Assembly: GCA_963752875.1 (NCBI GenBank)
Contig: CAVWAH010000011.1
Span: forward strand, 121,761-185,760
DNA from: an uncultured Gammaproteobacteria bacterium
GTDB lineage: Bacteria > Pseudomonadota > Gammaproteobacteria > Steroidobacterales > Woeseiaceae
Direction of reading: 5' to 3'
Length of the DNA: 64,000 nucleotides
Below, one piece after another: positions 38,712 through 50,820 of this stretch. The notes beneath the pieces are model-generated. The model had not been told where the DNA came from. It saw only the letters and a list, made by a program, of their open reading frames with translations, and did not search any database. The position numbers and the translations under genes are program-made. Position 1 is the stretch's first letter. Each line of letters starts with the position of its first letter.

Positions 38712-39842
38712 ATGGACCTTATCGAGCAAATCTGGACCGGTTCCGGCATCTACCAGATAACCGGCGGGCAACTCGCCATGCTCGCTGTCTGCCTGTTGTT
38801 GCTCTATCTCGGTATCGTCAAGAAGTTCGAGCCGCTGTTGCTTGTGACGATCGGTTTTGGCGGCCTGCTCAGCAACATCCCGGGCGCGGGCGTAGCTGAG
38901 CCAGGCGGGCTCCTCTACCTTGCCTACGAAGTTGGCATCAAGTCCGGCGCTTTCCCACTGATCATCTTCATGGGTGTGGGAGCCCTGACGGACTTTGGGC
39001 CGCTGTTGGCCAATCCGCGGACTCTGTTCCTCGGTGCCGCAGCGCAGTTCGGAATTTTTGCCACCCTGCTCGGCGCCCTGGGTATGACACAGCTCGGCTG
39101 GATGGACTTCTCATTGCGAGAAGCCGCCGCGATCGGGATTATCGGCGGCGCGGACGGGCCGACGGCAATTTATGTGGCCGGGCAGCTGGCACCCAACCTG
39201 CTGGGCCCGATTGCGGTTGCCGCGTATTCGTACATGGCCCTCGTGCCACTGATTCAGCCGCCGATCATGAGAGCGCTGACGAGCAAGGCAGAACGCAGCA
39301 TTGAAATGGTGCAGTTGCGAAAAGTCTCCAGGACGGAGCGCATCATGTTCCCGCTGATGCTGTTGTTGCTCGTCGGGCTGTTGCTGCCGACGGCTGCTCC
39401 GCTGCTCGGTATGCTTGCGTTTGGCAACCTGATGCGCGAGTGCGGTGTTGTCGATCGCCTGTCGAACACCACTCAGAACGCACTCATCAATATTGTGACG
39501 ATATTTCTCGGGCTCGCGGTCGGTTCAAAGCTGAGCGCAGACGAGTTTCTGGTGGCGAGCACGCTCGGCATCCTGTTGCTTGGAATGGTCGCTTTTGCGA
39601 TCGGTACTGCAAGCGGTGTCATCATGGGCAAGATGCTCAACAAGGTATCAACGCAACCGATCAACCCGTTGATTGGCGCGGCGGGTGTATCGGCGGTCCC
39701 AATGGCAGCGCGCGTTGCCAACAAAGTCGGGCTCGAGGCCAATCCGCATAACATCCTGCTCATGCATGCCATGGGGCCGAATGTCGCCGGTGTCATAGGA
39801 TCTGCCGTTGCGGCAGGTATCATGATCATGTTCACGTCATAG
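38712..39842 (+). CDS. oadB: oxaloacetate decarboxylase beta subunit (Na+ pump)
   Basis: 376-aa polytopic protein with the OadB pattern, in gene order G-A-B. Confidence 0.9.
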
Positions 39843-39856
39843 CCACGGAAGTCTTT

Positions 39857-40708
39857 ATGCCTTCAATTTCCATCGTAATCCCTGCGAAGAACGAAGTCGG
39901 TGCTATTGGCAAGGTCGTCGCGGGAGCCGTCGAGAAATACCCTGACGCCGAAATAATTGTTGTTGATGACGGGTCGACAGATGACACGGCCAGCGTTGCT
40001 GAAGGTGCCGGGGCAAGGGTCTTGCGACACCCGGAGAGTCTCGGCAATGGCGCGGCAGTCAAGGCGGGAGTTCGGGCGGCGCAGGGTGACATTATCGCGA
40101 TGATGGATGGCGACGGTCAGCACGATGCTGGCGAGTTCGGTCCGTTGCTTGAGAAACTCGACGAAGGCTACGACATGATCATTGGTGCTCGCGATTCCGG
40201 GTCGCACGCCAACGTCGGTCGCCTGTATGCCAACGGGATCTACAACGTTGTGGCGTCGTGGTTGACCGGGCGACGGATTCCGGACCTGACGTCGGGCTTT
40301 CGCGTCGTTCGGGCGCAGCTTTTTAAGAAATTCCTGTACCTGTTGCCGAATGGATTCTCCTATCCTACGACGATCACGATGGCGTTCCTGCGCTCGGGAT
40401 ACCCGATCTGCTTTGAGCCTATTCCGGTCGCCAAACGTATTGGCAAAAGTCATATTCGTCCGATTCGGGACGGTCTGCGCTTCACGGTTATTATTTTCAA
40501 GATCGCGACGCTGTACTCACCGCTCAAGATATTCCTGCCGATCAGCGCGACGTTTTTCGCGGCCGGTGTCGGCTATTACTTCTATACTTACTTGACTGCT
40601 GGTCGTTTCACAAACATGAGCATGCTCGTGATCAGTGCATCGGTCATCATCTTCCTTATCGGATTGATCTCCGAGCAAATTACGGCATTGACCTACAGCA
40701 AGTCCTGA
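39857..40708 (+). CDS. GT2 polyprenyl-phosphate glycosyltransferase (DPM1/GtrB/ArnC-like) with C-terminal TM helices
   Basis: ISIVIPAKNE, VVDDGSTDDT and DGDGQHD motifs; two C-terminal TM helices. Confidence 0.85.
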   Translation: MPSISIVIPAKNEVGAIGKVVAGAVEKYPDAEIIVVDDGSTDDTASVAEGAGARVLRHPESLGNGAAVKAGVRAAQGDIIAMMDGDGQHDAGEFGPLLEKLDEGYDMIIGARDSGSHANVGRLYANGIYNVVASWLTGRRIPDLTSGFRVVRAQLFKKFLYLLPNGFSYPTTITMAFLRSGYPICFEPIPVAKRIGKSHIRPIRDGLRFTVIIFKIATLYSPLKIFLPISATFFAAGVGYYFYTYLTAGRFTNMSMLVISASVIIFLIGLISEQITALTYSKS

Positions 40709-40709
40709 T

Positions 40710-41303
40710 ATGCGGCAGTGCATCTTCGTCACCGGGACGCGTGCGCAACTGGGGAAGATCGCGCCCGTCTTGAAGCTGGCGGGAGAGCAAGGTCTTCGTC
40801 ATTCGGTCTGGTATACGGGCGAACAATACGAGCCCATCGAAGATCTCGTGGAGGAGAATGACCTGCGCTCGAGTGTTGTTCTCCCCGATGTCCTCGAGGG
40901 ACGATCCGTTGTCGGCAGGTCGTTGGTTTGGCTCCCGTCGACCGTATACCGCTGTTTTCACTATGTCAGCGGCGTGAAGGCCTGGACCGGGCGACGCCCC
41001 CTGGTTGTCGTGCACGGGGACACATTGTCGACCTGGCTGGGGGCCGTAGCCGGATCGTGGGGCGGGGGAGACATCGTACATCTGGTAGGTGAACTCAGTT
41101 TCAGGAAATGGTCCGATTCGTTCCCTGGGGGATTATTGAGGCGCCTGACGTTTCGCAAAACCCGTTACGCGCTTTGCCCGGATGACGACGCGGCGGGCCG
41201 CATGCAGAAATATCCAGGATGTATCGTTGTCAACACCTCCGATGCCTCCGGAACCCCGCCGTCTCGGACCACCGTCGAAGCACTCACGCGTTGGGCAAGT
41301 TGA
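40710..41303 (+). CDS. UDP-GlcNAc 2-epimerase-like N-terminal domain only (truncated/degenerate; possible gene remnant)
   Basis: IFVTGTRAQLGKIAPV ~ WecB VFGTRPEAIKMAPL. VVVHGDTLST ~ VLVHGDTTTT. HLVGELSF replaces HVEAGLRT. Only 197 aa, and no C-terminal domain ORF follows in the next 100 nt. Confidence 0.5.
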   Translation: MRQCIFVTGTRAQLGKIAPVLKLAGEQGLRHSVWYTGEQYEPIEDLVEENDLRSSVVLPDVLEGRSVVGRSLVWLPSTVYRCFHYVSGVKAWTGRRPLVVVHGDTLSTWLGAVAGSWGGGDIVHLVGELSFRKWSDSFPGGLLRRLTFRKTRYALCPDDDAAGRMQKYPGCIVVNTSDASGTPPSRTTVEALTRWAS

Positions 41304-41404
41304 GTTCGAACGATGTGAGTGGAGTTGTCGACTGCACACTGCATTTCCCAACAGGGTTTGGTTACTATGACCAAACTCCTGCAACCACAAGACACTGATG
41401 GTCA

Positions 41405-42472
41405 ATGAAGATACTGATTGATATCAATCACCCTGCACATGTGCATTTCTTCAGAAATCCGATCAAGCTCATGATTGATCGGGGCCATGAAGTCATGGTT
41501 ACGAGTCGTGACAAGGAAATGGCGATCGATTTACTCGAGGAACTCGGCATTCCAAACAGGAAGCTATCCTCTCTCGGGGGCGGAGGTCTGATTTCTCTCG
41601 GCAAGGAGCTTGTGCTTCGCAATTGGGCATTGCTCAAAGTTGTACGTGAATTTCGGCCCGACGCCATGTCTGCTATTGGCGGCACAAGCATCGCCCAGGT
41701 GGGGTTCCTTACTCGAACGCCATCCCTCGTCTTTTACGACACGGAAAACGCCAAACTCCAGAATTTAATCACGTACCCTTTCAGCAGCTGCGTTCTTGTG
41801 CCGCGCTGTTACGAGTCATGGTTACCCAGGAAACGGCACGTGCGCTACGCGGGCTACCACGAGCTCTCCTACCTGCACGCAGACTATTTTCAAGGCAATC
41901 TGGAGACTGCAAAATCGAATGGTCTGGAACACGGCAGAGATAACTACTTCATCAGAGTTGTTTCCTGGCAGGCCAATCACGATGTGGGGGAACGTGGCTG
42001 GACGCCCGATATTCTGTCCAGACTGATCAGCAAGCTCAGCCGGACAGGAAATGTAATCATCTCTTCGGAGCGAGAATTACCCGATGAGTTTGCGCCTTAC
42101 CTTTACAAAGGCAAAGTGTCCGATGTCCATCACGTACTTGCATTCTGCAGGCTGTTCATCGGGGAGAGTGCCACGATGGCGTCCGAGTGCGCGGTGATGG
42201 GCGTTCCCGCTATTTACGCAGCCGAAACTGCTCGCGGCTACACTAACGAACAGGAAGAACGATACGGCCTTGTTAAGAACATTTCAGCGATCGAAGACCG
42301 CCTGATACTGCAAGCAGTTGACGATATGCTCTCCCTTGACGAAAGTACTCTGAAAGCAAAGCACTTAATACTCCTTGAGGAGACGATAGACGTAGCTAAA
42401 TTCGTCGCTGATTCAATCATCAATTATCCACAGGTACTGCATCAGTACCGACGATCTGAAGAAGCAGCGTAA
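41405..42472 (+). CDS. DUF354-family protein (GT-B/epimerase-like fold, function unknown)
   Basis: N-terminus MKILIDINHPAHVHFFRNPIKLMIDRGHEVMVTSRDKE matches the DUF354 signature as I remember it. Confidence 0.65.
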   Translation: MKILIDINHPAHVHFFRNPIKLMIDRGHEVMVTSRDKEMAIDLLEELGIPNRKLSSLGGGGLISLGKELVLRNWALLKVVREFRPDAMSAIGGTSIAQVGFLTRTPSLVFYDTENAKLQNLITYPFSSCVLVPRCYESWLPRKRHVRYAGYHELSYLHADYFQGNLETAKSNGLEHGRDNYFIRVVSWQANHDVGERGWTPDILSRLISKLSRTGNVIISSERELPDEFAPYLYKGKVSDVHHVLAFCRLFIGESATMASECAVMGVPAIYAAETARGYTNEQEERYGLVKNISAIEDRLILQAVDDMLSLDESTLKAKHLILLEETIDVAKFVADSIINYPQVLHQYRRSEEAA

Positions 42473-42475
42473 TCC

Positions 42476-44332
42476 ATGTGCGGAATTACTGGCTGGTTTT
42501 CAGAACATGCGCTCGAGTCGGGTGCTGAAGATCGATTGCGAAAAATGATGCTGGCGATCAGTCACCGTGGACCCGATGCTGATGGACAGTATTGCAGTCG
42601 CCATGCAGCGCTCGGTCATACGCGATTGTCCATTATTGACCTCGACTCGGGTCAACAGCCCATGACCAGCACAACCGGAAACACGACAATTGTTTTCAAT
42701 GGGGAAATATACAATTACGAATCGCTCCGGGCCGATTGCGAAAGTGACGGTTATCGTTTTGCGAGCCACTCGGACACCGAAGTAATACTCGCCCTGTTCG
42801 AGACGCGTGGCATTCACGCAATGAGCAGGCTCAGGGGAATGTATGCGTTTTCGTTGTGGGATCAGCAAAAAAACGAGGGCTGGCTGGTACGCGATCCGCT
42901 TGGCATAAAGCCGTTGTTCCACTGTCAGGATGACCGCGGGCGCCTGATATTTTCTTCGGAAGCAAAATCGATATTCGCATCGGGCTTCTGCAATCCGACC
43001 CTTGATTCCGGATCGCTCCATCTCTTGATGAACTTTCGATACCTGCCAGGAGGACATTCCCTGTTCGAAGGCATCGAACAACTGCCGGCGGGTCACGCGC
43101 TGTGCTGGAAGCAGGACGGCAGCGTGCATTTGACGCCCATTCCTCGGGAAAGTGCCGGGGATGTGCATGACACGCTGCTCGTAATTAAAGAATCCGTTCA
43201 GCATCATATGGTCTCCGATGTAGAAGTGGGGGCCTACCTGTCTGGCGGCGTTGACTCGGCGACAGTCGTGGCTCTGGCGCGAGAGCACCCTGGCGCCCCC
43301 ATGCGAACCTTTACGCTGGATGTTGGTGACGACCCAAGCGAGAGTCGTCACGCCGCCAGAACGGCAGAAATTCTGGGCGTCAGGAATCAACTGGGAACAA
43401 GCCACACCGACATCGCTTCATCTCTCAAGAAAGTTCTCTGGCACCTGGAAGTGCCAAAGATCAATGCCTACCAGATTTTTGAGCTGGCAGGTTTTGCCTC
43501 GCAGCACGTGAAGGTTTGTCTATCCGGACTGGGCGGAGATGAGCTGTTTCTGGGTTACAACGCGCACGGTATTATGAACAAGGCGCGTAGGGCGGCACAG
43601 GTCTTGCCAACAGCTGTGTCTGAAAGTGCCGGCAATCTGCTGTCAAGGCTACTGCGGAGCACCAGCTCTGCGCCCTGGAGCGAGAGAGAGCGTGCGTCGC
43701 TGATGCTGCAGTCGCTGGGCAACTGGCCGCGCGTTTATGGCCTGCTCAGGAATGTCTGGGATAGCCCTTCCCTGAGACAGCAAATCTATGGCCCGCGCCT
43801 GCTCGACCAGAAACTGCCAAATGCGTTCGACTACATCGACAGTCATTGGCCTCACCACCCGGATCCCGTCATGGCAATGGCGGAATTCGAAAGAAGTGAA
43901 AAAATGGTCAACGACATGCTCTGGCAAGAAGACCGTCTCAGTATGGCGCACGGTCTGGAGGTTCGGGTTCCATTCGTGGACAAGGAACTATTTGGACATG
44001 CGAGCACGCTGGACCGTGAAACGCTGATGCCTCACGGCCAATTGAAGGGCCACCTGAGGCGTGCTGTCGGTCCACTACTGTCGCCGGAAATTCTGCAACG
44101 TCCGAAGAGCGGATTCCAGGTGGATGCTGCGACATTCTACAAACAACATTTGCAGCCATTGGCAAAAGAGGTCTTGTCACCGGAAAGACTGCGTGATGCT
44201 GGTCTGTTCAATCCCGACTTCGTACGGAAGATTGAGGGCCTGCCGGCGCGAAAATGTTTCCGTTGGCACTTTTTCGTGCTCTACATGATGTTGATGACGC
44301 ACCTATGGATGGAAGTATTCGACACCCGATGA
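42476..44332 (+). CDS. asparagine synthase (glutamine-hydrolysing) family amidotransferase
   Basis: N-terminal MCGI nucleophile, class-II GATase domain, and the SGGVDS PP-loop. Confidence 0.9.
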   Translation: MCGITGWFSEHALESGAEDRLRKMMLAISHRGPDADGQYCSRHAALGHTRLSIIDLDSGQQPMTSTTGNTTIVFNGEIYNYESLRADCESDGYRFASHSDTEVILALFETRGIHAMSRLRGMYAFSLWDQQKNEGWLVRDPLGIKPLFHCQDDRGRLIFSSEAKSIFASGFCNPTLDSGSLHLLMNFRYLPGGHSLFEGIEQLPAGHALCWKQDGSVHLTPIPRESAGDVHDTLLVIKESVQHHMVSDVEVGAYLSGGVDSATVVALAREHPGAPMRTFTLDVGDDPSESRHAARTAEILGVRNQLGTSHTDIASSLKKVLWHLEVPKINAYQIFELAGFASQHVKVCLSGLGGDELFLGYNAHGIMNKARRAAQVLPTAVSESAGNLLSRLLRSTSSAPWSERERASLMLQSLGNWPRVYGLLRNVWDSPSLRQQIYGPRLLDQKLPNAFDYIDSHWPHHPDPVMAMAEFERSEKMVNDMLWQEDRLSMAHGLEVRVPFVDKELFGHASTLDRETLMPHGQLKGHLRRAVGPLLSPEILQRPKSGFQVDAATFYKQHLQPLAKEVLSPERLRDAGLFNPDFVRKIEGLPARKCFRWHFFVLYMMLMTHLWMEVFDTR

Positions 44333-45534
44333 AACCCGACAACGAATATTCTGACGACAATGTTCGCGATGTTCTGCGGCAAACGCTCCTCTGGAGCAAG
44401 AAGCAGGGCATGAAGGGCTACAACAAGCACGATGCTCTCAATAGCCCCATTCTTCGAACGCTGTTGGGCTGGCACAAGTGGCCCAGGATTGTAGCTATAC
44501 AGGGTGTTATGCGTTTTCCCATCAATCTGCGTCCGTTGCTGCTGGTGCCCAAGGTATATAACCCCAAAGGCCTGTCGCTTTTTGTCAGCAGCTACCTGGA
44601 CCTGTATACCCAGGAGGGCGATGCGCATCATCTCGAAGAAGCGCAGAATCTGTTGCAGCTCCTCATGGATAACCGCTCAGAAGGAAACTGGAGCGGCGAC
44701 TGTTGGGGTTACGCCTATCCCTGGCAGGACATGGGCTTTTTCGCCCCCGCCAATACCCCCAACGCTGTCGTTAGCTGTTTTGTTGCCGAAAGTTTCCTGC
44801 ACGCGTACCGGATTACTGCCGACGAGAAATATCTGGATGTTGTTGGTAGCACGATCCTGTTTCTGCTGAAAGACCTGCCGGTACTGAAGGATACGGATAC
44901 CGAACTCTGTGTCGGCTACATGCCGGTGGCGATGAGTATGCGCGTTATGGACGTGAGTATTTTGATCGCAGCGGTGGTGTTGCAGTACGCAAGTCTCAAA
45001 AATGACAATGAAATGAAGGTGATAGGAGAGAAGCTGCTAACTTACGTCCTGAATCAGCAGACTGCATATGGTGCCTGGTTCTATACCGATCCGCCCGAGG
45101 ATTCCCTGATACGGCACGACAACTACCACACGGGTTTCATCCTGGATGCGATCTGGCGGTGCATGGCCGCGACGGGAAACCGGAGCAGCGAGGAGAGCTA
45201 CTTCAGAGGACTGGAATTCTATGCGACAAAGCACTTTCGCTCGGATGGTGCACCCCGCTGGATGAGCGACAGGGAGTTTCCACACGATATTCATGGCGCT
45301 GCTCAGGGGATTATCACTTTCAGCCGGCATTCTGACCTCTATCCGGGCCTGGCTGAGAAAATTGCGAACTGGGCCACAGACATTATGTATACCAAGCAGG
45401 GAAGATTCTATTATCAGCAGACTCGCTGGTACCGGAAGCGTTTTACCTTGCTCAGATGGTGCAATGGCTGGATGGTACGGGCACTGGCTTGCCTACAACT
45501 CGAACGCAAGAAATCAAAAGGTTCACATGTCTAA
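44329..45534 (+). CDS. conserved hypothetical protein (all-alpha, possibly alpha/alpha-toroid enzyme) of polysaccharide-type clusters
   Basis: ATG 44329 overlaps the upstream TGA (ATGA); the track start at 44254 is an extension. No motif was recognised with certainty. Confidence 0.5.
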   Translation: MKPDNEYSDDNVRDVLRQTLLWSKKQGMKGYNKHDALNSPILRTLLGWHKWPRIVAIQGVMRFPINLRPLLLVPKVYNPKGLSLFVSSYLDLYTQEGDAHHLEEAQNLLQLLMDNRSEGNWSGDCWGYAYPWQDMGFFAPANTPNAVVSCFVAESFLHAYRITADEKYLDVVGSTILFLLKDLPVLKDTDTELCVGYMPVAMSMRVMDVSILIAAVVLQYASLKNDNEMKVIGEKLLTYVLNQQTAYGAWFYTDPPEDSLIRHDNYHTGFILDAIWRCMAATGNRSSEESYFRGLEFYATKHFRSDGAPRWMSDREFPHDIHGAAQGIITFSRHSDLYPGLAEKIANWATDIMYTKQGRFYYQQTRWYRKRFTLLRWCNGWMVRALACLQLERKKSKGSHV

Positions 45535-46624
45535 ATATCACTTCCTCAAGAACGAGGCCTATCGGGCACTTGCCTCGCCGCTCAGCGGTGGACGGGCAGC
45601 CATTGACATCAAGCCTACAATTGCGACGGTCTACATAACCAAGTTCTGCAACTCGCGTTGCACGATGTGCGACTTCTGGCAGGCCGACAGGGATCCGAGC
45701 GAGCTGACCGCCGAACAATGGGGTGTCATTTTTTCCAGGCTGAAAGCGTTTGGCGTGGAGTATGTTGGCGTCAATGCGTCGGGTGAGCTATTTACTCGAA
45801 GGGACGCGTATCAGATCCTCCAGCACATCAGTGATCTTGGTATGAGCTTTGGCGTCAACTCGAATGCCACGTTATTCACATCATCCAAAGCCAAGAAGCT
45901 GGCCGCCCTCGGCCCGAAAGCGGTCACGATTGGGCTCGAAGGTGTCGGCAATGAGATGTACCTGGCGACCCGCGGACTAAAGAATGGCTTCAACAAGATT
46001 ACGAGAAGTATCGACAACCTCAGGAAAGCAGGCATAACGAATATCGGTGTCGGCACGGTGTTGATGCGCGAGAATGTCGATCACTGGGTGAAACTGGCCG
46101 AGTGGGCGCGAGACACGGGTATCCACGGCGTGCGCTTCACCGCTCAGCACGACAGCTATTTCAACCCTATTTCCGATCCGAAAATGTCCTCCTACGCAGA
46201 TCCCGAATTCGTGGCCAAGGTGGAAAGCGAAATTGAGAAGCTGATTGAGTTCAAGAAACGCTACGGCGTTGTGAGAAACTCGGATCAGTACTTGCGACAA
46301 GTCGGCGACTTCTACAAAGATCAGATGAGCTACTTCCCACAACCTTGCGTCCAGGGCGGCAATCGCATCGAGCTCGACGTTTTTGGAAACGTGACATTGT
46401 GTTCTTTTGTGACTGAGTCGCTGGGGAATCTGCTGCTGGAAGATATGGACGCAATCTGGAATTCCGAGAAGCACCGCAAGGCCAGGGAGGACGCGTTCAC
46501 AGGCGAATGCCCGAGATGCTATCTGTCCTGCTATGCGGAGGAGAACCTGCGACTGTCACCTGGAGGTTTTCTGCCCACTATGGGGAATTCGCTATCTCGC
46601 TGGAAACGGCTGGTAGTTGATTAG
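45527..46624 (+). CDS. radical SAM protein with C-terminal SPASM/twitch-like Cys cluster
   Basis: Start MSKYHFLKNE at 45527 (8-nt overlap with the upstream gene). CNSRCTMC (CX3CX2C). C-terminal Cys pattern PCVQGG...LC...GECPRCYLSC. Confidence 0.85.
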   Translation: MSKYHFLKNEAYRALASPLSGGRAAIDIKPTIATVYITKFCNSRCTMCDFWQADRDPSELTAEQWGVIFSRLKAFGVEYVGVNASGELFTRRDAYQILQHISDLGMSFGVNSNATLFTSSKAKKLAALGPKAVTIGLEGVGNEMYLATRGLKNGFNKITRSIDNLRKAGITNIGVGTVLMRENVDHWVKLAEWARDTGIHGVRFTAQHDSYFNPISDPKMSSYADPEFVAKVESEIEKLIEFKKRYGVVRNSDQYLRQVGDFYKDQMSYFPQPCVQGGNRIELDVFGNVTLCSFVTESLGNLLLEDMDAIWNSEKHRKAREDAFTGECPRCYLSCYAEENLRLSPGGFLPTMGNSLSRWKRLVVD

Positions 46625-46626
46625 CC

Positions 46627-47520
46627 ATGAATAAGGCACCGGTCTCCAAAGACGAATACGACGAGTCATGGATCGAGTCGGCGTGGGGTAGCAAGCGAAA
46701 CGACGATCTGCTGTCCGGCGGCGAGCTCGCTGTTCGCCCCAGGATGGAAAGAGCCCTGTCTTTATCCAATCTCGAACCCGGCTTGTCAGTGCTTGATATC
46801 GCATGTGGGCGCGGAGAGTTTCCATTGCTGGCCTGCACCATGGGCGCACACGCTGTCGGTGTCGACTTCTCGGATGCTTCTATCAAATTTGCCAGGGAGC
46901 TGAAAGGAAGCCGCAGCAATCAGGACAAAGGCTCCCTGGAGTTTGTTCAGGCCGATGCCTGCGATCTACCTTTTGATGATGGCACGTTCGACAGAATCAC
47001 AATGCTCGACATTATTGAGCATCTCGTACCGGAGCAACTGGAGCAGATGTTCCTCGAGGTCAAGCGCCTGCTTAAGCCAGATGGCTTCGCGGTGATTCAT
47101 ACGCTGCCGAATCGCTGGGTATACGATTATACGTTTCCGTTGCTGCACCGTATCTCAAAGAAGTTCCCCGCAGATCCTCGCGGTCCAATTGACAGTGTCA
47201 TCCACGTTAATGAGCAGGACTTACCGACATTGAAGCGGATGTTTCGCCGTTGTGGGCTCAACAGTTCGATCTGGCTGGAACAGCATATGGCCGCGCAGGC
47301 TCGATGGAATTCGAGTAATGACGAGTACGGAGATAATCGGGATACGGTTTATCCCATGCTCGCGGGAGCAAGCGGCCGATTGCTGGAACTGGCTAGCCTG
47401 ACTCCGGCCAAGCTGTTGCTTAGCAACGATATTTTCGGAACTGTCTGGAATGGCCGGAAACCAGAAAGAGCCACGCGAAGACTGGCCCTCACGGAGCGAC
47501 TAGCGACTGTTTTTTCTTGA
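46627..47520 (+). CDS. class I SAM-dependent methyltransferase
   Basis: Motif I VLDIACGRGEF, with DACDLPFDDGTFD downstream. Confidence 0.85.
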   Translation: MNKAPVSKDEYDESWIESAWGSKRNDDLLSGGELAVRPRMERALSLSNLEPGLSVLDIACGRGEFPLLACTMGAHAVGVDFSDASIKFARELKGSRSNQDKGSLEFVQADACDLPFDDGTFDRITMLDIIEHLVPEQLEQMFLEVKRLLKPDGFAVIHTLPNRWVYDYTFPLLHRISKKFPADPRGPIDSVIHVNEQDLPTLKRMFRRCGLNSSIWLEQHMAAQARWNSSNDEYGDNRDTVYPMLAGASGRLLELASLTPAKLLLSNDIFGTVWNGRKPERATRRLALTERLATVFS

Positions 47521-48450
47521 GAACAGGAGAATCAGCAGTGACGGTGCCCAGGCAATAATCAATACAGTCAACCTGAGAACCAGATACGACGATAACACCA
47601 GCTCTTCGCCGAGTCCCAAGATCGAAAACAGCAGAATACCGGCGACTTCGACTGTGCCCAAGCCATTGAAACTCACCGGTATGTAGGCCACCAACGAACT
47701 GACCGCGACCAGTAATACTACTTCCAGCCATGGAGGATCCTGAGCTCCACCCGCCTGGAAAACGTACCAGTAAGCGGTACCTATCAGGAGGATCTTTAAC
47801 GTTGTGCCGACGAGGTTGATTCCTACCAACCATGGTTTTCCGCTGACAAAGGTCGCGAGGTCCCGAAAGCTCGTACGGACCTTTCCCAGCCATGCAGATT
47901 CTCTCGCAGCATGTAGCAGGACATTCCTGACGAGATACAGGACGATGGCGGCAATCGTCAATACCGCGGCCGCGGTCCAGACAATCGTGCCGGTCTCTAT
48001 CTCGATTTCTTCCGAGAATCGCAGCAGCGCAATTCCCGCCAACAACGCCATGACCAGGAAGCTGATGGATTTGTCGAGTACGGCGCGGGCCATGATTTTC
48101 GACCACTCTACACCGGCTCGCTTCATCAGGTAGGTCAGGCTCGCAACGTCACCTACCTGCCCGGGAACGACAAGCCCCAATGCCCATGAGAACCAATAGA
48201 AAGAGATGAACCTGCCAAAAGACACGGTGGAGTCGATTGCTACCACCAGGTATGCGTTAAAGCCACCTAACAGCGTTGCGATGACGATACATAGGGCACC
48301 GTACAACAAATACTCGGAATTCAGGTGGGTCAGGTGGGAAAGGAGGACTTCACCGTCGACCGAGAAAATCAGAACTGCGATTATCGTGAGACCCGCGACA
48401 ACGCGGAGAATCTTGCTGTGGGTTACGTTTCCGGCGTGATTACGAATCAA
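47500..48450 (-). CDS. flippase-like / LPG_synthase_TM (UPF0104) family membrane protein
   Basis: 316-aa polytopic protein with a TTG start, showing the pattern of the lysylphosphatidylglycerol-synthase TM-region family. Confidence 0.65.
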   Translation of the reverse strand: MIRNHAGNVTHSKILRVVAGLTIIAVLIFSVDGEVLLSHLTHLNSEYLLYGALCIVIATLLGGFNAYLVVAIDSTVSFGRFISFYWFSWALGLVVPGQVGDVASLTYLMKRAGVEWSKIMARAVLDKSISFLVMALLAGIALLRFSEEIEIETGTIVWTAAAVLTIAAIVLYLVRNVLLHAARESAWLGKVRTSFRDLATFVSGKPWLVGINLVGTTLKILLIGTAYWYVFQAGGAQDPPWLEVVLLVAVSSLVAYIPVSFNGLGTVEVAGILLFSILGLGEELVLSSYLVLRLTVLIIAWAPSLLILLFSRKNSR

Positions 48451-48535
48451 TCGACTTGATCACTCTCATCGGATTCCCGGCGACAAAGACACCCTCCGGA
48501 ACATCTTCATATTGCGACGAGTCGGACACAGCTAG
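48440..48535 (-). pseudogene. C-terminal remnant of a hexapeptide-repeat (LbH) O-acetyltransferase
   Basis: The minus-strand frame reads ...VSDSSQYEDVPEGVFVAGNPMRVIKSIDS*, a typical acetyltransferase C-terminus. There is no start codon and no upstream body, because the frame closes at a TAA near 48570 inside the neighbouring gene. Confidence 0.4.
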
Positions 48536-49332
48536 CCCCGTTTCTTCTTGATGGCAGACTCGTCCGGCTTAGTCGCGACCAGCCAGACGCCGGCACCGAA
48601 CTTGGGCCTCGAATGACTCCCTAGCCAGGAAAAGAAATTTAGAACCGGAAATAGCAGGGCGTAAATAATACGGTTCTTTTCTTCAGCTCCCGAAATCCAA
48701 TAGGAGATGTTGTTCGTGAGATTCTCCAGGAAGCCGTAACTGAATCCTCTATTGTCTACCACGAAGCCCGCTTGCTCCACTCTCTCGACGAGTTGCGCCA
48801 TATGGTAGCCGGGTCGTACGTGTCCGGGGACGTCGAAATTCGTCTGCCATGCCAGGACTGGCCATCGGCGATAGAAGTGCGGTACATGCACAACCAAGGC
48901 TCCTGACGTTTCGAGGGATTCAAAAAAGTTCTGCAATACCAATCGATCATCCAGGACATGCTCAAGATTGTCTACGGAGACAATCAGATCATAGAGGTCG
49001 GTGCTGCTGTACTTGGTCAGGTCGGCGTCGATAAAGTTACAGTTGTTGAAGCCCGCCTTTTTGGAAATCTCGCGATTAGCTTTCTGCGCGATTGGATCGG
49101 CATCAACCGCATCGACCTCTGCAGTTGGAAATCGACTCGATAGAAATCGAGTAATGACGCCGCGGCCGCAACCTGCGTCCAGAATACGAGAAGCACTGTC
49201 AGGCAGGATTTGTCTTAGACGACGAACCCGAATTCGCAACCCGACGATTGGCACACCCAGCAGACGGCAATACAACCTGCCAAGAAAGTCGAGTCGGGAA
49301 TCAAAATACAGTTCACTTCCTGGCATGCTCAT
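48532..49332 (-). CDS. class I SAM-dependent methyltransferase
   Basis: Motif I ILDAGCGRGV, 266 aa. Confidence 0.85.
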   Translation of the reverse strand: MSMPGSELYFDSRLDFLGRLYCRLLGVPIVGLRIRVRRLRQILPDSASRILDAGCGRGVITRFLSSRFPTAEVDAVDADPIAQKANREISKKAGFNNCNFIDADLTKYSSTDLYDLIVSVDNLEHVLDDRLVLQNFFESLETSGALVVHVPHFYRRWPVLAWQTNFDVPGHVRPGYHMAQLVERVEQAGFVVDNRGFSYGFLENLTNNISYWISGAEEKNRIIYALLFPVLNFFSWLGSHSRPKFGAGVWLVATKPDESAIKKKRG

Positions 49333-49413: not shown

Positions 49414-50820
49414 CTAGCTCTTGAAATGATCCTCGAGCACCTGCGCAACGCAGCAGGTCAGGCGTTTGCCTGTTTCGATGTGCAGGAATTCATTCGGTCC
49501 GTGTGCATTCGACTTCGGACCCAACAGACCCGTGATCAGGAATTGTGCTTTGGGGAAACGTTCGCCCAGCATGCCCATGAACGGAATCGTGCCACCTGTA
49601 CCCATGTACATCGACGGCTTGCCAAAAAACGCACTAGATGCCTTCTGCATGGATGCTTCGAGCCACTGTGCGATCGCCGGGGCATTCCAGCCAGCCATGC
49701 TGGAATCGGCATCGAACTCGACCTTGGCCAGCGGCGGCCTATCGGCTTCGAGTACTTCCTTGACCGCTACTGCAGCGTCTTCTGCGTTGACGGTTGGTGG
49801 CAGGCGGAAAGATAGTTTCAACACGGTGTAAGGCAAGAGCACATTGCCGGCGTTGATGAGTTCAGGTATTCCTTCCTGACCGGTAACGGCCAGCGTCGGA
49901 CGCCAGGTGTTGTTGAGCAAAAGTTCGGTGTGCGACTCACTGGGCTTCGGATCACTGACAGCCCAGGGGAATTTTTCGTAAACGAGATCCTGCAGCGTTT
50001 CGGCCGCCAGTTTCGCCTGCTCGAGGCGCTGCTCGGGAATGTCTGCGTGCAAAGCCTTCGTTTTGATCTGGCCGCTGTCTTCGTCCTCGACGCGACTGAT
50101 CAGCTGTCGCGCTGTTCGGAAGCTCGAGGGCACCACGCCACTCGCCGATCCCGAATGTACGCCTTCAGTAAGGACATCCACACGTAGCGTGCCAGTCAGG
50201 TTTCCGCGCAACGATGTCGTGCACCAGAGCTGGTCGTAGTTGCCACACTCGGCATCGAGACAAACGACGAGATCCGGTGAGCCAATTCGGTCTTCGAGCA
50301 GGTCAATGTAGTAGGGCAGGTCAAAGCTGCCGCTTTCCTCGCAGCCTTCGACGAGCACGACGCAATGCGCGTGCGGAATGCCTTGCTCCTGCAGCGCCCG
50401 GATTGCTGTCAGCGAACCGAACGTTGCGTAACCGTCGTCGGCACCACCGCGACCATAGAGTTTGCCGTCCTTGATAACAGGCGTCCACGGGTCGAGGTCC
50501 TCATCCCAACCGCTGAACTCGGGCTGCTTGTCGTAGTGACCGTAGAGCAGTACGACCTCATCGGATTGCCCCGGGATGTCAATGAACAGCAAAGGCGTGC
50601 GACCTTCAATTCGGACGATCTCGACCGTCATGTCCTTGATGGGCTGTGTCTTGCACCAGGCTTCGAGCATCTCCACAGCAGTTTCCATGTGGCCGTGTGC
50701 TTCCCAGTCGGGGTCAAAATGTGGCGACTTGTTCGGGACTTTGATGTACTCGGCGATCTCGGGAATGATCGAGTCATCCCACATTTTGCTGACAAAATCA
50801 GCGGCTTGTTTGTTATCCAT
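49414..50820 (-). CDS. M20-family metallopeptidase (dipeptidase-like)
   Basis: LYGHYDKQP, GRGGADDG and EGCEESGS motifs of the M20 family. Confidence 0.85.
   Translation of the reverse strand: MDNKQAADFVSKMWDDSIIPEIAEYIKVPNKSPHFDPDWEAHGHMETAVEMLEAWCKTQPIKDMTVEIVRIEGRTPLLFIDIPGQSDEVVLLYGHYDKQPEFSGWDEDLDPWTPVIKDGKLYGRGGADDGYATFGSLTAIRALQEQGIPHAHCVVLVEGCEESGSFDLPYYIDLLEDRIGSPDLVVCLDAECGNYDQLWCTTSLRGNLTGTLRVDVLTEGVHSGSASGVVPSSFRTARQLISRVEDEDSGQIKTKALHADIPEQRLEQAKLAAETLQDLVYEKFPWAVSDPKPSESHTELLLNNTWRPTLAVTGQEGIPELINAGNVLLPYTVLKLSFRLPPTVNAEDAAVAVKEVLEADRPPLAKVEFDADSSMAGWNAPAIAQWLEASMQKASSAFFGKPSMYMGTGGTIPFMGMLGERFPKAQFLITGLLGPKSNAHGPNEFLHIETGKRLTCCVAQVLEDHFKS

Follow-up and report, generated by a model that had tools for sequence, protein, structure and literature searches.

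What does the tightly packed gene cluster at positions 39857-49332 of the 64,000-nucleotide stretch of DNA analyzed here (the window) make, and to which acceptor is its product attached? A first-pass annotation had read it as a horizontally acquired pathway that builds an amidated and methylated sugar on a polyprenyl phosphate and flips it for decoration of the envelope. Pfam and NCBIfam annotation of each open reading frame recovers all nine genes of that reading. The plus strand carries a glycosyltransferase, GT2 (39857-40708; Pfam Glycos_transf_2, E 1.9e-31), a half gene of 197 aa with weak matches to Epimerase_2 and the N-terminal half of WecB (40710-41303), a DUF354 protein (41405-42472; Pfam DUF354, E 2.2e-17), an AsnB protein with an MCGI N terminus (42476-44332; Pfam GATase_7/6 and Asn_synthase), an all-alpha protein of 401 aa (44329-45534), a radical SAM/SPASM enzyme of 365 aa (45527-46624; Pfam Radical_SAM and SPASM), and a SAM-dependent methyltransferase, MT_A (46627-47520; Pfam Methyltransf_11/25). 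On the minus strand are a UPF0104/LPG_synthase_TM membrane protein (47500-48450; Pfam LPG_synthase_TM, E 1.3e-26), a 21-codon hexapeptide acyltransferase stub (48446-48508; 62% identity to the C-terminal 21 residues of the hexapeptide protein at locus L001), and a second SAM-dependent methyltransferase, MT_B (48532-49332; Pfam Methyltransf_23/31/25). Conserved flanks enclose the cluster: oadB on the left (38712-39842, plus strand; Pfam OAD_beta, E 2e-153) and an M20 peptidase gene on the right (49414-50820, minus strand; Pfam Peptidase_M20).

With the starts of the barrel gene (as we call that of the all-alpha protein) and of the radical SAM gene reset from the sequence to 44329 (an ATGA overlap with AsnB) and 45527 (an 8-nt overlap), the plus-strand junctions from GT2 to MT_A measure +1, +101, +3, -4, -8, and +2 nt, bearing out the tight packing described earlier, and the convergent genes MT_A and UPF0104 share 21 nt. 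The only long plus-strand gap, a 101-nt noncoding junction after the half gene (41304-41404), is where GC and similarity patterns both shift, marking the border between resident genes and an imported block. Windowed GC is 53.8% over the 9476-bp cluster against a genome mean of 57.5% (SD 1.5%, same-size windows), a value matched or undercut by 2.3% of such windows (2.3rd percentile); dips of comparable depth are seen at other places in the window, 55-58 kb among them. The drop first claimed is thus real, but it amounts to about 4 points rather than 38% versus 62%: those hand counts of 60 nt each were exact (38.3% and 61.7%) but unrepresentative of the cluster. Composition is host-like in GT2 (55.0%) and the half gene (60.4%) and ranges from 50.7% to 54.8% from DUF354 to MT_B. 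As the annotation had stated, Pfam and NCBIfam detect no Wzx, Wzy, Wzz, ABC exporter, or phosphoglycosyltransferase within 39.8-49.4 kb; the cluster also has no uronic-acid-forming dehydrogenase or aminotransferase, and a UDP-glucose/GDP-mannose dehydrogenase-family gene is present elsewhere in the genome, which favors the pathway proposed below.

The history of the site divides the cluster in two. In congeners, oadB is 80-94% identical and is followed directly by either GT2 (71-85% identity) or the M20 gene (75-89% identity), which abuts oadB or GT2. Since these congener arrangements, oadB-M20 and oadB-GT2-M20, represent the empty site, GT2 and the half gene are resident, and the imported cargo is confined to DUF354 through MT_B (41405-49332), about 7.9 of the 9.5 kb. 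Horizontal acquisition therefore holds for that block, given the empty site and the lack of any barrel orthologue in 40 same-genus and 16 same-order genomes, and not for the two head genes. GT2 is built like GtrB, ArnC, and DPM1, with a pair of hydrophobic helices at its C terminus, and its best NCBIfam models (AglJ, dolichyl-P hexose transferase, PpgS) all score below cut-off; it is predicted to be a polyprenyl-phosphate glycosyltransferase similar to AglJ, DPM1, PpgS, and ArnC, and it is the head of the resident locus. The half gene has no homologue in any of 82 cassette loci, and copies of 123-136 aa (32-37% identity) lie 3' of GT2 in G002, G053, and L129; it is probably a decaying resident remnant of a WecB-like GT-B protein. 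L129, a second lineage of the group, has the island at this site too, with an intact hexapeptide acyltransferase (195 aa) at the position of the stub, which is a deletion scar. The region is best read as one allele of a hypervariable glycan locus with a resident GT2 head.

A search for the same gene set elsewhere identified the order GT2-DUF354-AsnB-barrel in the majority of 82 non-redundant loci spread over many phyla, so the cassette here is one copy of a widespread, unstudied gene set. DUF354 is found in 69 of these loci and AsnB in 68. The AlphaFold2 model of DUF354 (pLDDT 94) is closest in the PDB to WecB, NeuC, MnaA, and MurG (TM 0.6-0.72), and the family has invariant His, Asp, and Glu residues and a GESATMASE motif that by eye resembles the nucleotide-binding motif of WecB; these features suggest a GT-B fold enzyme that is either UDP-sugar 2-epimerase-like or a second glycosyltransferase. 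DUF354 is otherwise mainly archaeal (Methanocaldococcus, Haloferax, and Methanosarcina among control genomes) and is also found in Lactococcus lactis. AsnB scores 405 bits against NCBIfam asn_synth_AEB, has a complete glutaminase domain, and retains the Cys2 nucleophile (MCGI), as expected for the glutamine-dependent amidotransferase of the core. The most conserved core gene is that of the barrel protein, which belongs to no Pfam or NCBIfam family; its 1656 homologues average 71% identity per column across phyla. Its all-alpha nature, noted earlier, is confirmed by an AlphaFold2 model (pLDDT 90) showing an (alpha/alpha)6 barrel that most resembles the folds of cellobiose, glucose, and GlcNAc 2-epimerases, GH76, and GH88 (TM about 0.6); the modeled protein is probably sugar-active, as an epimerase/isomerase or hydrolase. 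This cluster retains the invariant residues of both families, barrel and DUF354.

The remaining genes vary more. Radical SAM/SPASM orthologues occur in 8 of the 82 loci, never alongside the ADH_zinc_N-GFO_IDH_MocA fusion present in 30, and the gene is accessory to the cassette; its nearest solved sequences, by weak matches, are SkfB and cytosylglucuronate decarboxylase. MT_B orthologues are found in 17 of the 82 loci, and MT_A orthologues (324-393 bits) adjoin UPF0104 in many. UPF0104, single-copy in this genome, recurs at the cassette end in other loci and matches the NCBIfam flippase-like domain below cut-off, making it a candidate flippase for a lipid-linked sugar. Apart from UPF0104 and the GT2 anchor, the cassette enzymes (Gln/ATP, SAM, and radical SAM types) have no membrane segments and are thus of cytoplasmic types, which we count in favor of the pathway proposed below.

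Gene context in relatives points to the acceptor, going beyond the earlier reading. Of the 57 close loci, those with a barrel protein at least about 50% identical, 40 carry type IV pilus genes or a TfpW-like gene no more than 10 kb away, the TfpW-like gene itself being present in 30; the usual order is pilS-pilR-pilA-TfpW-like-GT2-DUF354-AsnB-barrel-...-UPF0104-pilB-pilC. L130 carries the radical SAM version of the cassette in this same setting between pilA/TfpW-like and pilB-pilC, and L008, like some others, is a pilin-locus copy with no TfpW-like gene within 10 kb. No pil genes are found in the 25 distant loci, where those scanned contain PMT_2-type GT-C genes instead. In a class-level sample, a TfpW-like gene is present in 9 of the 10 genomes with a barrel gene and in 106 of the 390 other genomes, and the barrel gene is broken in the single exception. 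Across 40 same-genus genomes, GT2 and a TfpW-like gene are both present in 24, one without the other in 2 and 2, and neither in 12; the two are adjacent in seven same-genus genomes, one of them G023, in which the TfpW-like gene lies between oadB and GT2. Many congeners carry the pil-locus TfpW-like gene without this cassette, implying that the enzyme does not depend on the sugar of this cassette. Congeners also possess a second TfpW-like class beside GT2 and outside pil loci, so that non-pilin proteins could be targets.

TfpW of Pseudomonas aeruginosa group IV strains (Pa5196/PA7) is a GT-C-like protein (about 646 aa) that has many membrane helices, carries a DDX motif in its first periplasmic loop, and ends in a TPR domain; its gene lies directly 3' of pilA, and its donor is a polyprenyl-monophosphate sugar from clustered genes (bioRxiv 10.1101/2020.04.19.049825). 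The TfpW-like family (about 640 aa, with a TPR domain C-terminal to 8-13 hydrophobic segments) matches this published description. Its invariant DD, RP, KE, and EHRNY motifs resemble, by eye, M1, M2, M4, and M7 of dolichyl-P-mannose-using TMTC/GT-C enzymes (PMC7801869); profile comparison with PMT_2 is weak (probability 32%), and no DUF1736 match is found with Pfam. This genome has one TfpW-like gene, in the pil locus of contig C8 between zapD and coaE-pilD-pilC-pilB-pilA, on a different contig from the cassette, so that their coupling here is one of co-occurrence.

On balance, we think it probable, if far from certain, that the locus builds a decorated sugar on a lipid carrier, flips it across the inner membrane, and has it transferred to type IV pilin; pilin is the most likely target because the cassettes of relatives sit in the pilus locus beside a membrane sugar-transferase. 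The analysis itself establishes which genes are present and how their products fold, that the core is conserved, that relatives have the cassette physically linked to pilin and GT-C genes, and how the block was inserted; from these we infer the order of steps and the chemistry of each as follows. At the inner membrane, on its cytoplasmic side, GT2 would move the sugar of a nucleotide sugar to polyprenyl (undecaprenyl) monophosphate, and the imported block would remodel that sugar, or its nucleotide precursor, while still in the cytoplasm: DUF354 by epimerising it or adding a second residue, AsnB by carboxyl amidation using glutamine and ATP (implying a sugar of uronic-acid type), the barrel protein by epimerisation or isomerisation, the radical SAM/SPASM enzyme by radical redox chemistry or C-modification, and MT_A and MT_B by methylation. 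An amidated and methylated sugar, as first proposed, is what these enzyme families suggest. UPF0104 would then flip the completed lipid-linked sugar, and the TfpW/TMTC-like GT-C, with its periplasmic TPR domain, would transfer it to Ser/Thr of the major pilin.

The same lipid-linked, flipped sugar might instead be placed on another periplasmic or surface protein, or, as true Arn/Gtr systems do, on an envelope glycan such as LPS core, O-antigen, or lipid A, an alternative that we regard as possible but rather unlikely. Its strength is that the cassette here sits at oadB/M20, far from pil genes, that the second TfpW-like class of congeners adjoins GT2 at non-pil sites, that distant phyla combine the cassette with PMT_2-type GT-Cs and no pil genes, and that TPR domains bind proteins generally rather than pilin in particular. 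Against this stand the pil-locus embedding of 40 of the 57 closest loci and the fact that the one GT-C candidate detected in this genome lies within its pil locus, with no PMT_2/ArnT-type or GtrA-type partner found in the assembly (83% complete).

It is improbable that the island is a decaying, non-functional remnant, as the half-size GT-B gene, the acyltransferase stub, and the barrel pseudogene of a class-level relative could suggest: none of the eight main genes is truncated and their starts are coupled, they are free of stops and 89-97% identical in the sister contig L127 and 63-86% in L129, and AsnB Cys2 and the invariant barrel and DUF354 residues are retained. Production of a RiPP (lasso- or sactipeptide) or another soluble metabolite by AsnB and the radical SAM/SPASM enzyme is more doubtful still. 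Peptide maturation is the best-known role of SPASM enzymes and AsnB-like cyclases, and there are weak NCBIfam matches to models of that kind, but the scores fall far below cut-offs (lasso cyclase, 130 bits versus 525), the AsnB glutaminase domain is complete, and the radical SAM gene is accessory (8 of 82 loci) in a cassette that otherwise conserves GT2, a GT-B fold protein, and a sugar-type barrel. The genes of the cluster are also closely spaced, with no gap above 101 nt.

Transfer of a lipid-carried sugar to pilin, the reading we prefer, has parallels in several known systems. WbpS (P. aeruginosa O6) and WbtH (Francisella) are AsnB-type proteins thought to amidate a uronic acid carboxyl in O-antigen loci that are Wzx/Wzy-dependent and built on undecaprenyl diphosphate. 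A full-length glutamine-dependent AsnB paralogue in a glycan locus is shared, whereas here it accompanies a monophosphate-type GT2, DUF354, and the barrel enzyme. Archaeal dolichyl-phosphate N-glycan assembly offers AglJ, the best NCBIfam match of GT2 (129 bits, far under the 325-bit family cut-off), the mainly archaeal DUF354, and a monophosphate-linked glycan that can be elaborated before flipping; here, AglB/STT3 is absent, and a TfpW/TMTC-like, presumably O-linking, transferase takes its place. The Arn/Gtr-like class assigned earlier is largely supported by the build of GT2 and by the repeated position of the cassette beside GT-C genes: as in Gtr/Arn systems (GtrB or ArnC, a small flippase, and a GT-C), a membrane-anchored GT2 would load a sugar on undecaprenyl phosphate, with flipping and GT-C transfer outside the cytoplasm. 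Unlike those systems, no GtrA or ArnE/F is found here (UPF0104/LPG_synthase_TM being the candidate flippase), the sugar would be heavily remodeled by five or six further predicted enzymes, and a TPR-bearing GT-C suggests that the acceptor is a protein and not O-antigen or lipid A.

Eukaryotic O-mannosylation by DPM1 and TMTC1-4 likewise uses a DPM1-like GT2 yielding a polyprenyl-P-hexose, followed by transferases with about 11 membrane helices and luminal TPRs, comparable to the periplasmic TPRs of the TfpW-like family, and with DD, RP, KE, and E-x-R-x-Y-type motifs in common, as matched by eye (PMC7801869); it differs from the bacterial system, with its proposed pilin target and decorated sugar, for whose transferase Pfam gives no DUF1736 match. 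The layout of the TfpW system, with its arrangement of pilA, GT-C, and donor genes, recurs in related cassette loci. Its donor pathway is unrelated: the cluster here has no DprE1, DprE2, or phosphoribosyltransferase genes for D-arabinofuranose, its donor genes are GT2 with DUF354, AsnB, the (alpha/alpha)6 barrel, methyltransferases, and UPF0104, and in this genome they are unlinked from the pil locus. If pilin is the target, the benefit would likely be strain-specific masking of the pilus from phages and other binders, by analogy with Pseudomonas in the TfpW literature.

The cluster at 39857-49332 lies between oadA/oadB (oadB at 38712..39842, plus strand) and a minus-strand flank encoding an M20 peptidase (49414..50820), a metallo-beta-lactamase-fold protein and an aldehyde dehydrogenase. 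Our ORF list and Pfam/NCBIfam scans confirmed every gene named in the first-pass annotation: on the plus strand a GT2 glycosyltransferase, a WecB-like half gene, a DUF354 protein, an AsnB-like amidotransferase, a protein of then unassigned type (44329-45534; here the barrel protein), a radical SAM/SPASM enzyme and a methyltransferase (MT_A), and on the minus strand a UPF0104 protein and a second methyltransferase (MT_B). Reading the DNA directly, we corrected the start of the barrel protein to 44329, where it is ATGA-coupled to AsnB and encodes 401 aa, and that of the radical SAM enzyme to 45527, with an overlap of 8 nt and a length of 365 aa. The plus-strand junctions measure 1, 101, 3, -4, -8, and 2 nt, and the convergent MT_A and UPF0104 genes overlap by 21 nt. 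Sites predicted by a promoter and terminator scan were no commoner than in shuffled sequence, and we draw no operon claims from that scan. The GT2 gene starts 14 nt past the oadB stop (39842-39857) throughout the genus and so may be co-transcribed with the oxaloacetate decarboxylase operon, for which the promoter scan gave nothing above chance.

The absence of Wzx, Wzy, Wzz, an ABC exporter, and an initiating phosphoglycosyltransferase, also asserted in that annotation, was borne out by Pfam and NCBIfam for 39.8-49.4 kb, and we rejected a Wzx/Wzy- or ABC-dependent O-antigen or capsule locus because its defining genes are missing there. A nonulosonic (legionaminic, pseudaminic, or sialic) acid pathway, named beforehand as a match that would speak against a new pathway, is rejected on the same ground: Pfam and NCBIfam find no NeuB/PseI/LegI-type synthase, CMP-transferase, or PseB/PseC-type enzyme in the cluster, and DUF354 shares only its fold with NeuC.

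The GT2 belongs to Pfam PF00535, matches the NCBIfam models for AglJ, DolP-hexose transferase, PpgS, and ArnC, all under cut-off, and ends in two hydrophobic helices, a GtrB/ArnC/DPM1/AglJ-like build. In AsnB the glutaminase domain is complete and keeps its Cys2 nucleophile, and the protein scores well over the NCBIfam asparagine-synthase cut-off. The barrel protein has no family in Pfam or NCBIfam, although it has 1656 homologues, with a mean column identity of 71% across phyla. AlphaFold2 models it (pLDDT 90) as an (alpha/alpha)6 barrel, whose nearest folds are cellobiose, glucose, and GlcNAc 2-epimerases, GH76, and GH88 (TM ~0.6, 9-14% identity to AGE-type folds). The alignment reveals four invariant histidines (H34, H263, H267, and H322), which may correspond to the AGE catalytic residues, and homologues carry faint precomputed Pfam matches to the glucuronyl C5-epimerase C-terminal domain, GH127, and GH88. 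DUF354 is modeled (AlphaFold2, pLDDT 94) as a GT-B fold closest to WecB, NeuC, MnaA, and WbpI-type 2-epimerases and to MurG; it has invariant His, Asp, and Glu residues and a GESATMASE motif that by eye recalls the WecB nucleotide-binding motif. PDB sequence searches with the barrel and DUF354 profiles returned nothing meaningful, and only the fold comparison was informative. The half gene is not a DUF354 paralogue, as the similarity is not significant. The closest solved relatives of the radical SAM/SPASM protein are SkfB and cytosylglucuronate decarboxylase, which acts on a uronic acid, both being weak matches, and the UPF0104 protein is the sole LPG_synthase_TM protein of the genome.

We ran the proposed search for the same gene set elsewhere on the GTDB representative genomes, which returned 80 loci when scanned with the barrel alignment and none with a single barrel sequence as query. 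Most come from uncultured Gammaproteobacteria, including Thiohalomonadales, Chromatiales, Thiotrichaceae, and Pseudohongiella, and cultured carriers are Zooshikella ganghwensis DSM 15267, Colwellia sp. TT2012, and Dyella sp. S184. Further carriers belong to Desulfobulbaceae, Nitrospinaceae, Nitrospiraceae, Planctomycetota, Acidobacteriota, Fibrobacterota, Actinomycetota, Anaerolineales, and one Altiarchaeota MAG. In the 82 non-redundant loci compared, GT2-DUF354-AsnB-barrel is the recurring order and forms the core of a cassette with MT_A, MT_B, UPF0104, and a hexapeptide acyltransferase as common accessories, and none holds a counterpart of the half gene. The radical SAM/SPASM gene occurs in 8/82 loci and a 700-aa ADH_zinc_N-GFO_IDH_MocA fusion in 30/82, with zero overlap (L001-L084); the two may perform the same redox step by alternative routes or be alternative decorations. 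We found no publication describing the cassette in the literature on DUF354, on pilin together with asparagine synthase, and on uronamide amidotransferases.

The cassette is physically tied to type IV pilus genes. Among 57 loci with a barrel protein at least about 50% identical to that of the window, 40 have a pilin, pilB, pilC, or TfpW-like gene (a candidate GT-C transferase with a TPR domain) within 10 kb, and the TfpW-like gene itself is present in 30 of those 40. The usual layout is pilS-pilR-pilA-TfpW-like-GT2-DUF354-AsnB-barrel-...-UPF0104-pilB-pilC. Zooshikella shares it, its locus L057 reading pilC-pilB / pilA-TfpW-like-GT2-DUF354-AsnB-barrel, and one locus (L130) carries the radical SAM version of the cassette in the same pil setting. 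None of the 25 more distant loci contains pil genes, and those scanned have PMT_2-type GT-C genes, so the cassette appears to be a donor module that pairs with whichever GT-C is available. An hhalign comparison of the TfpW-like family with the PMT_2 proteins of distant loci gave a weak probability of 32%, the aligned region (TM3-TM5/KE) being the expected one. In a Chromatiales MAG (L008, 11098-15206), the core lies between pilA and pilB with a GT9, an FkbM methyltransferase, a pyruvyl transferase, and UPF0104 as accessories, and no TfpW-like gene lies within 10 kb.

TfpW-like proteins are 617-705 aa long; their first ~410 residues contain 8-13 hydrophobic segments, their C-terminal third matches TPR, and their membrane domain belongs to no Pfam or NCBIfam family. 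Invariant motifs are DD, RP, KE, and EHRNY; D43 and D44, inside PGLxGxFxFDD, do not vary among 23 sequences, and of the proline-rich motif YX6PFX7P, Y289-X6-P296 is conserved, but the F and final P are not. In most related loci the gene lies directly 3' of pilA. TfpW of P. aeruginosa has 646 aa, 11 helices, an essential DDX in the first periplasmic loop, and a periplasmic TPR, and is encoded downstream of pilA (bioRxiv 10.1101/2020.04.19.049825); by eye, DD, RP, KE, and EHRNY resemble motifs M1, M2, M4, and M7 of TMTC O-mannosyltransferases (PMC7801869). In architecture and in these motifs, the TfpW-like proteins match the published descriptions.

No GT-C transferase is encoded inside the cluster, and we found no PMT_2/ArnT-type gene in the genome, the assembly of which is 83% complete. 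A TfpW-like gene (651-679 aa) is instead present on another contig (C8), together with zapD, coaE, pilD, pilC, pilB, and two pilin genes; here as in the congeners it lies between zapD and coaE, inside the pil locus and ~5 kb from pilA. Congeners hold it at the same place, often as tandem pairs (L085, G000:C8 3008-5047; L101-L111). It is 50-57% identical across congeners, whereas its neighbors are 66-82% identical, as would be expected for a specificity gene that diversifies fast. The GT2 adjoins a TfpW-like gene in 30 related loci and seven congeners. Within the genus, 24/40 genomes have both genes, 2 and 2 have one alone, and 12 have neither (Fisher p = 1.3e-6), and in a class sample of 400 genomes a TfpW-like gene is present in 9/10 with the barrel protein vs 106/390 of the others (Fisher p = 8e-5), both p-values being overstated because related genomes are not independent. 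Approximately 2.5% of the sampled gammaproteobacterial species have a barrel homologue and ~29% a member of the TfpW-like family. The sole barrel-positive genome of the sample with no TfpW-like gene carries the barrel as a pseudogene with one TAG and one TAA (G324:C25:197518-198675).

What the data establish are the enzyme classes and folds, the conserved gene order, the proximity of the cassette to pilin and GT-C genes in related loci, and the history of the insertion. Beyond these, we infer a pathway in which the GT2 would load a sugar onto undecaprenyl phosphate. The sugar would then be remodeled in the cytoplasm by DUF354 (epimerase-like chemistry or addition of a second residue), AsnB (amidation of a carboxyl), the barrel enzyme (epimerization or isomerization), the radical SAM enzyme (redox or C-modification, possibly as an analogue of the oxidoreductase fusion that it replaces), and the two methyltransferases (methylation). 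UPF0104 would flip the product, and the TfpW-like enzyme of the pil locus would transfer it to Ser/Thr of pilin. Amidation of a carboxyl by AsnB would point to a sugar of the uronic-acid type; elsewhere the genome has one UDP-glucose/GDP-mannose dehydrogenase-family gene. That the cluster supplies a lipid-linked donor to a GT-C enzyme we consider probable, and the complete scheme, with pilin as the target in this genome, is the reading toward which we lean slightly. We put forward tentatively the wider proposal that the cassette with the methyltransferases and UPF0104 forms a self-contained, horizontally mobile pathway to an undescribed amidated, methylated sugar, which TfpW/TMTC-like enzymes would use for the O-glycosylation of type IV pilins in several phyla besides a few per cent of environmental Gammaproteobacteria, with DUF354 and the barrel protein as new sugar-modifying families and UPF0104 as a new class of flippase for polyprenyl-phosphate sugars.

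The cassette is unlinked to the pil locus in this genome, and TfpW-like genes that adjoin the GT2 also occur outside pil loci, both of which leave room for an acceptor other than pilin; we regard such an acceptor as rather unlikely. Eight intact, coupled, and conserved genes make it improbable that the island is dead. We give least credence to the maturation of a RiPP or the synthesis of another soluble metabolite, as family-level matches are missing and the partner genes are of sugar type: AsnB scores 130 bits with the lasso cyclase model (cut-off 525), and the NCBIfam StsB model gives 80 bits (cut-off 625). We reject RiPP maturation because its defining genes are missing from the Pfam and NCBIfam matches of the cluster.

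Pilin glycosylation through a lipid-linked donor would resemble TfpW-type glycosylation in its mode of working, and the TfpW-like proteins share the architecture and DD motif and, of the proline motif, the Y and the first P. The donor pathway differs, as no D-arabinofuranose donor genes (DprE1/DprE2-like, phosphoribosyltransferase) are among the cluster or cassette genes, and in this genome the transferase gene lies apart from the donor genes. Three-component Gtr/Arn systems likewise work in a similar mode and share the type of GT2 with a C-terminal anchor, but the candidate flippase differs: no GtrA or ArnE/F-type flippase is among the cluster proteins, and UPF0104/LPG_synthase_TM takes the corresponding place. 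The nearest eukaryotic analogue is DPM1 with TMTC.

Glycosylated pilins have been described in a small number of pathogens, with few sugars; in Pseudomonas the modification shields pili from phages. The cassette described here is large, unstudied, and common among environmental bacteria, with more than 1600 barrel homologues. It is physically linked both to pilin genes and to a TfpW/TMTC-like family of transferases that is itself widespread. It provides a context, open to testing, for four orphan families: DUF354, an orphan since its definition, for which our literature search found no functional study, the very highly conserved (alpha/alpha)6 enzyme, UPF0104 outside MprF, and a non-peptide radical SAM/SPASM enzyme. 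The existence of cultured carriers makes direct experiments feasible.

The cluster had been described as horizontally acquired and as AT-richer, the latter with hand counts in two 60-nt stretches, which are exact yet unrepresentative. Its GC content is 53.8%, against a mean of 57.5% (sd 1.5%) for 9.5-kb windows of the assembly (2.83 Mb, 38 contigs), 2.3% of which are as low or lower. The GT2 (55.0%) and the half gene (60.4%) are host-like, and the genes from DUF354 to MT_B lie between 50.7% and 54.8%. We found no barrel orthologue among 40 genomes of the same genus and 16 of the same order. On two metagenomic contigs this island occupies the same site, L127 being 89-97% and L129 63-86% identical to it, and the block of L129 is ~5 GC points under its own flanks. 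The cargo of the window is about equally close to that of the pilin locus L130 (DUF354 76%, AsnB 68%, barrel 69%, and radical SAM 80%) and that of L129 (78%, 70%, 70%, and 86%, respectively), whereas the GT2 is close to L129 only (83%, vs 56% to L130), a pattern that speaks for a pilin-island-type source of the block, imported behind a resident GT2. Horizontal origin stands for the block from DUF354 to MT_B, and a single foreign insert of 9.5 kb is rejected because the GT2 and half gene are resident. Between UPF0104 and MT_B there remains a 21-codon stub of the hexapeptide acyltransferase (EDVPEGVFVAGNPMRVIKSID, 48446-48508, minus strand), a gene that is intact at this position in the same-site island L129 and also in islands of pilin loci, for example L001.

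Among congeners, oadB adjoins the M20 gene in G005, G008, G012, and G014, the GT2 alone separates them in G018, G022, G049, and G051, and the GT2 is followed by a short half-gene remnant in G002, ahead of M20, and in G053, where the contig ends before M20. The half gene (40710-41303, plus strand, 197 aa) has shorter forms in two other loci (L121:10110-10520, 136 aa; L129:6636-7007, 123 aa), all after the GT2, and is a genus-resident remnant of variable length. From these site variants and its 71-85% identity in congeners, the GT2 is a resident head gene, behind which the cargo is exchangeable. The site is a hypervariable, O-antigen-like locus within one genus, with a conserved initiating GT2 and exchangeable cargo, and a tidy natural system for the origin of surface-glycan diversity. 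In G023, the order is oadB-TfpW-like-GT2-small membrane protein-M20 (L095, G023:C8, 6283-9319): a 634-aa TfpW-like GT-C overlaps the oadB stop, and after it come the GT2 orthologue and a membrane protein of 80 aa, so that the site has a minimal pair of candidate GT-C and GT2. In G046 (L120, G046:C18, 5711-11412), an alternative cargo of three GT4, a sulfotransferase, and a Wzx-like flippase lies between the GT2 and M20, which suggests a sulfated lipid-linked oligosaccharide.
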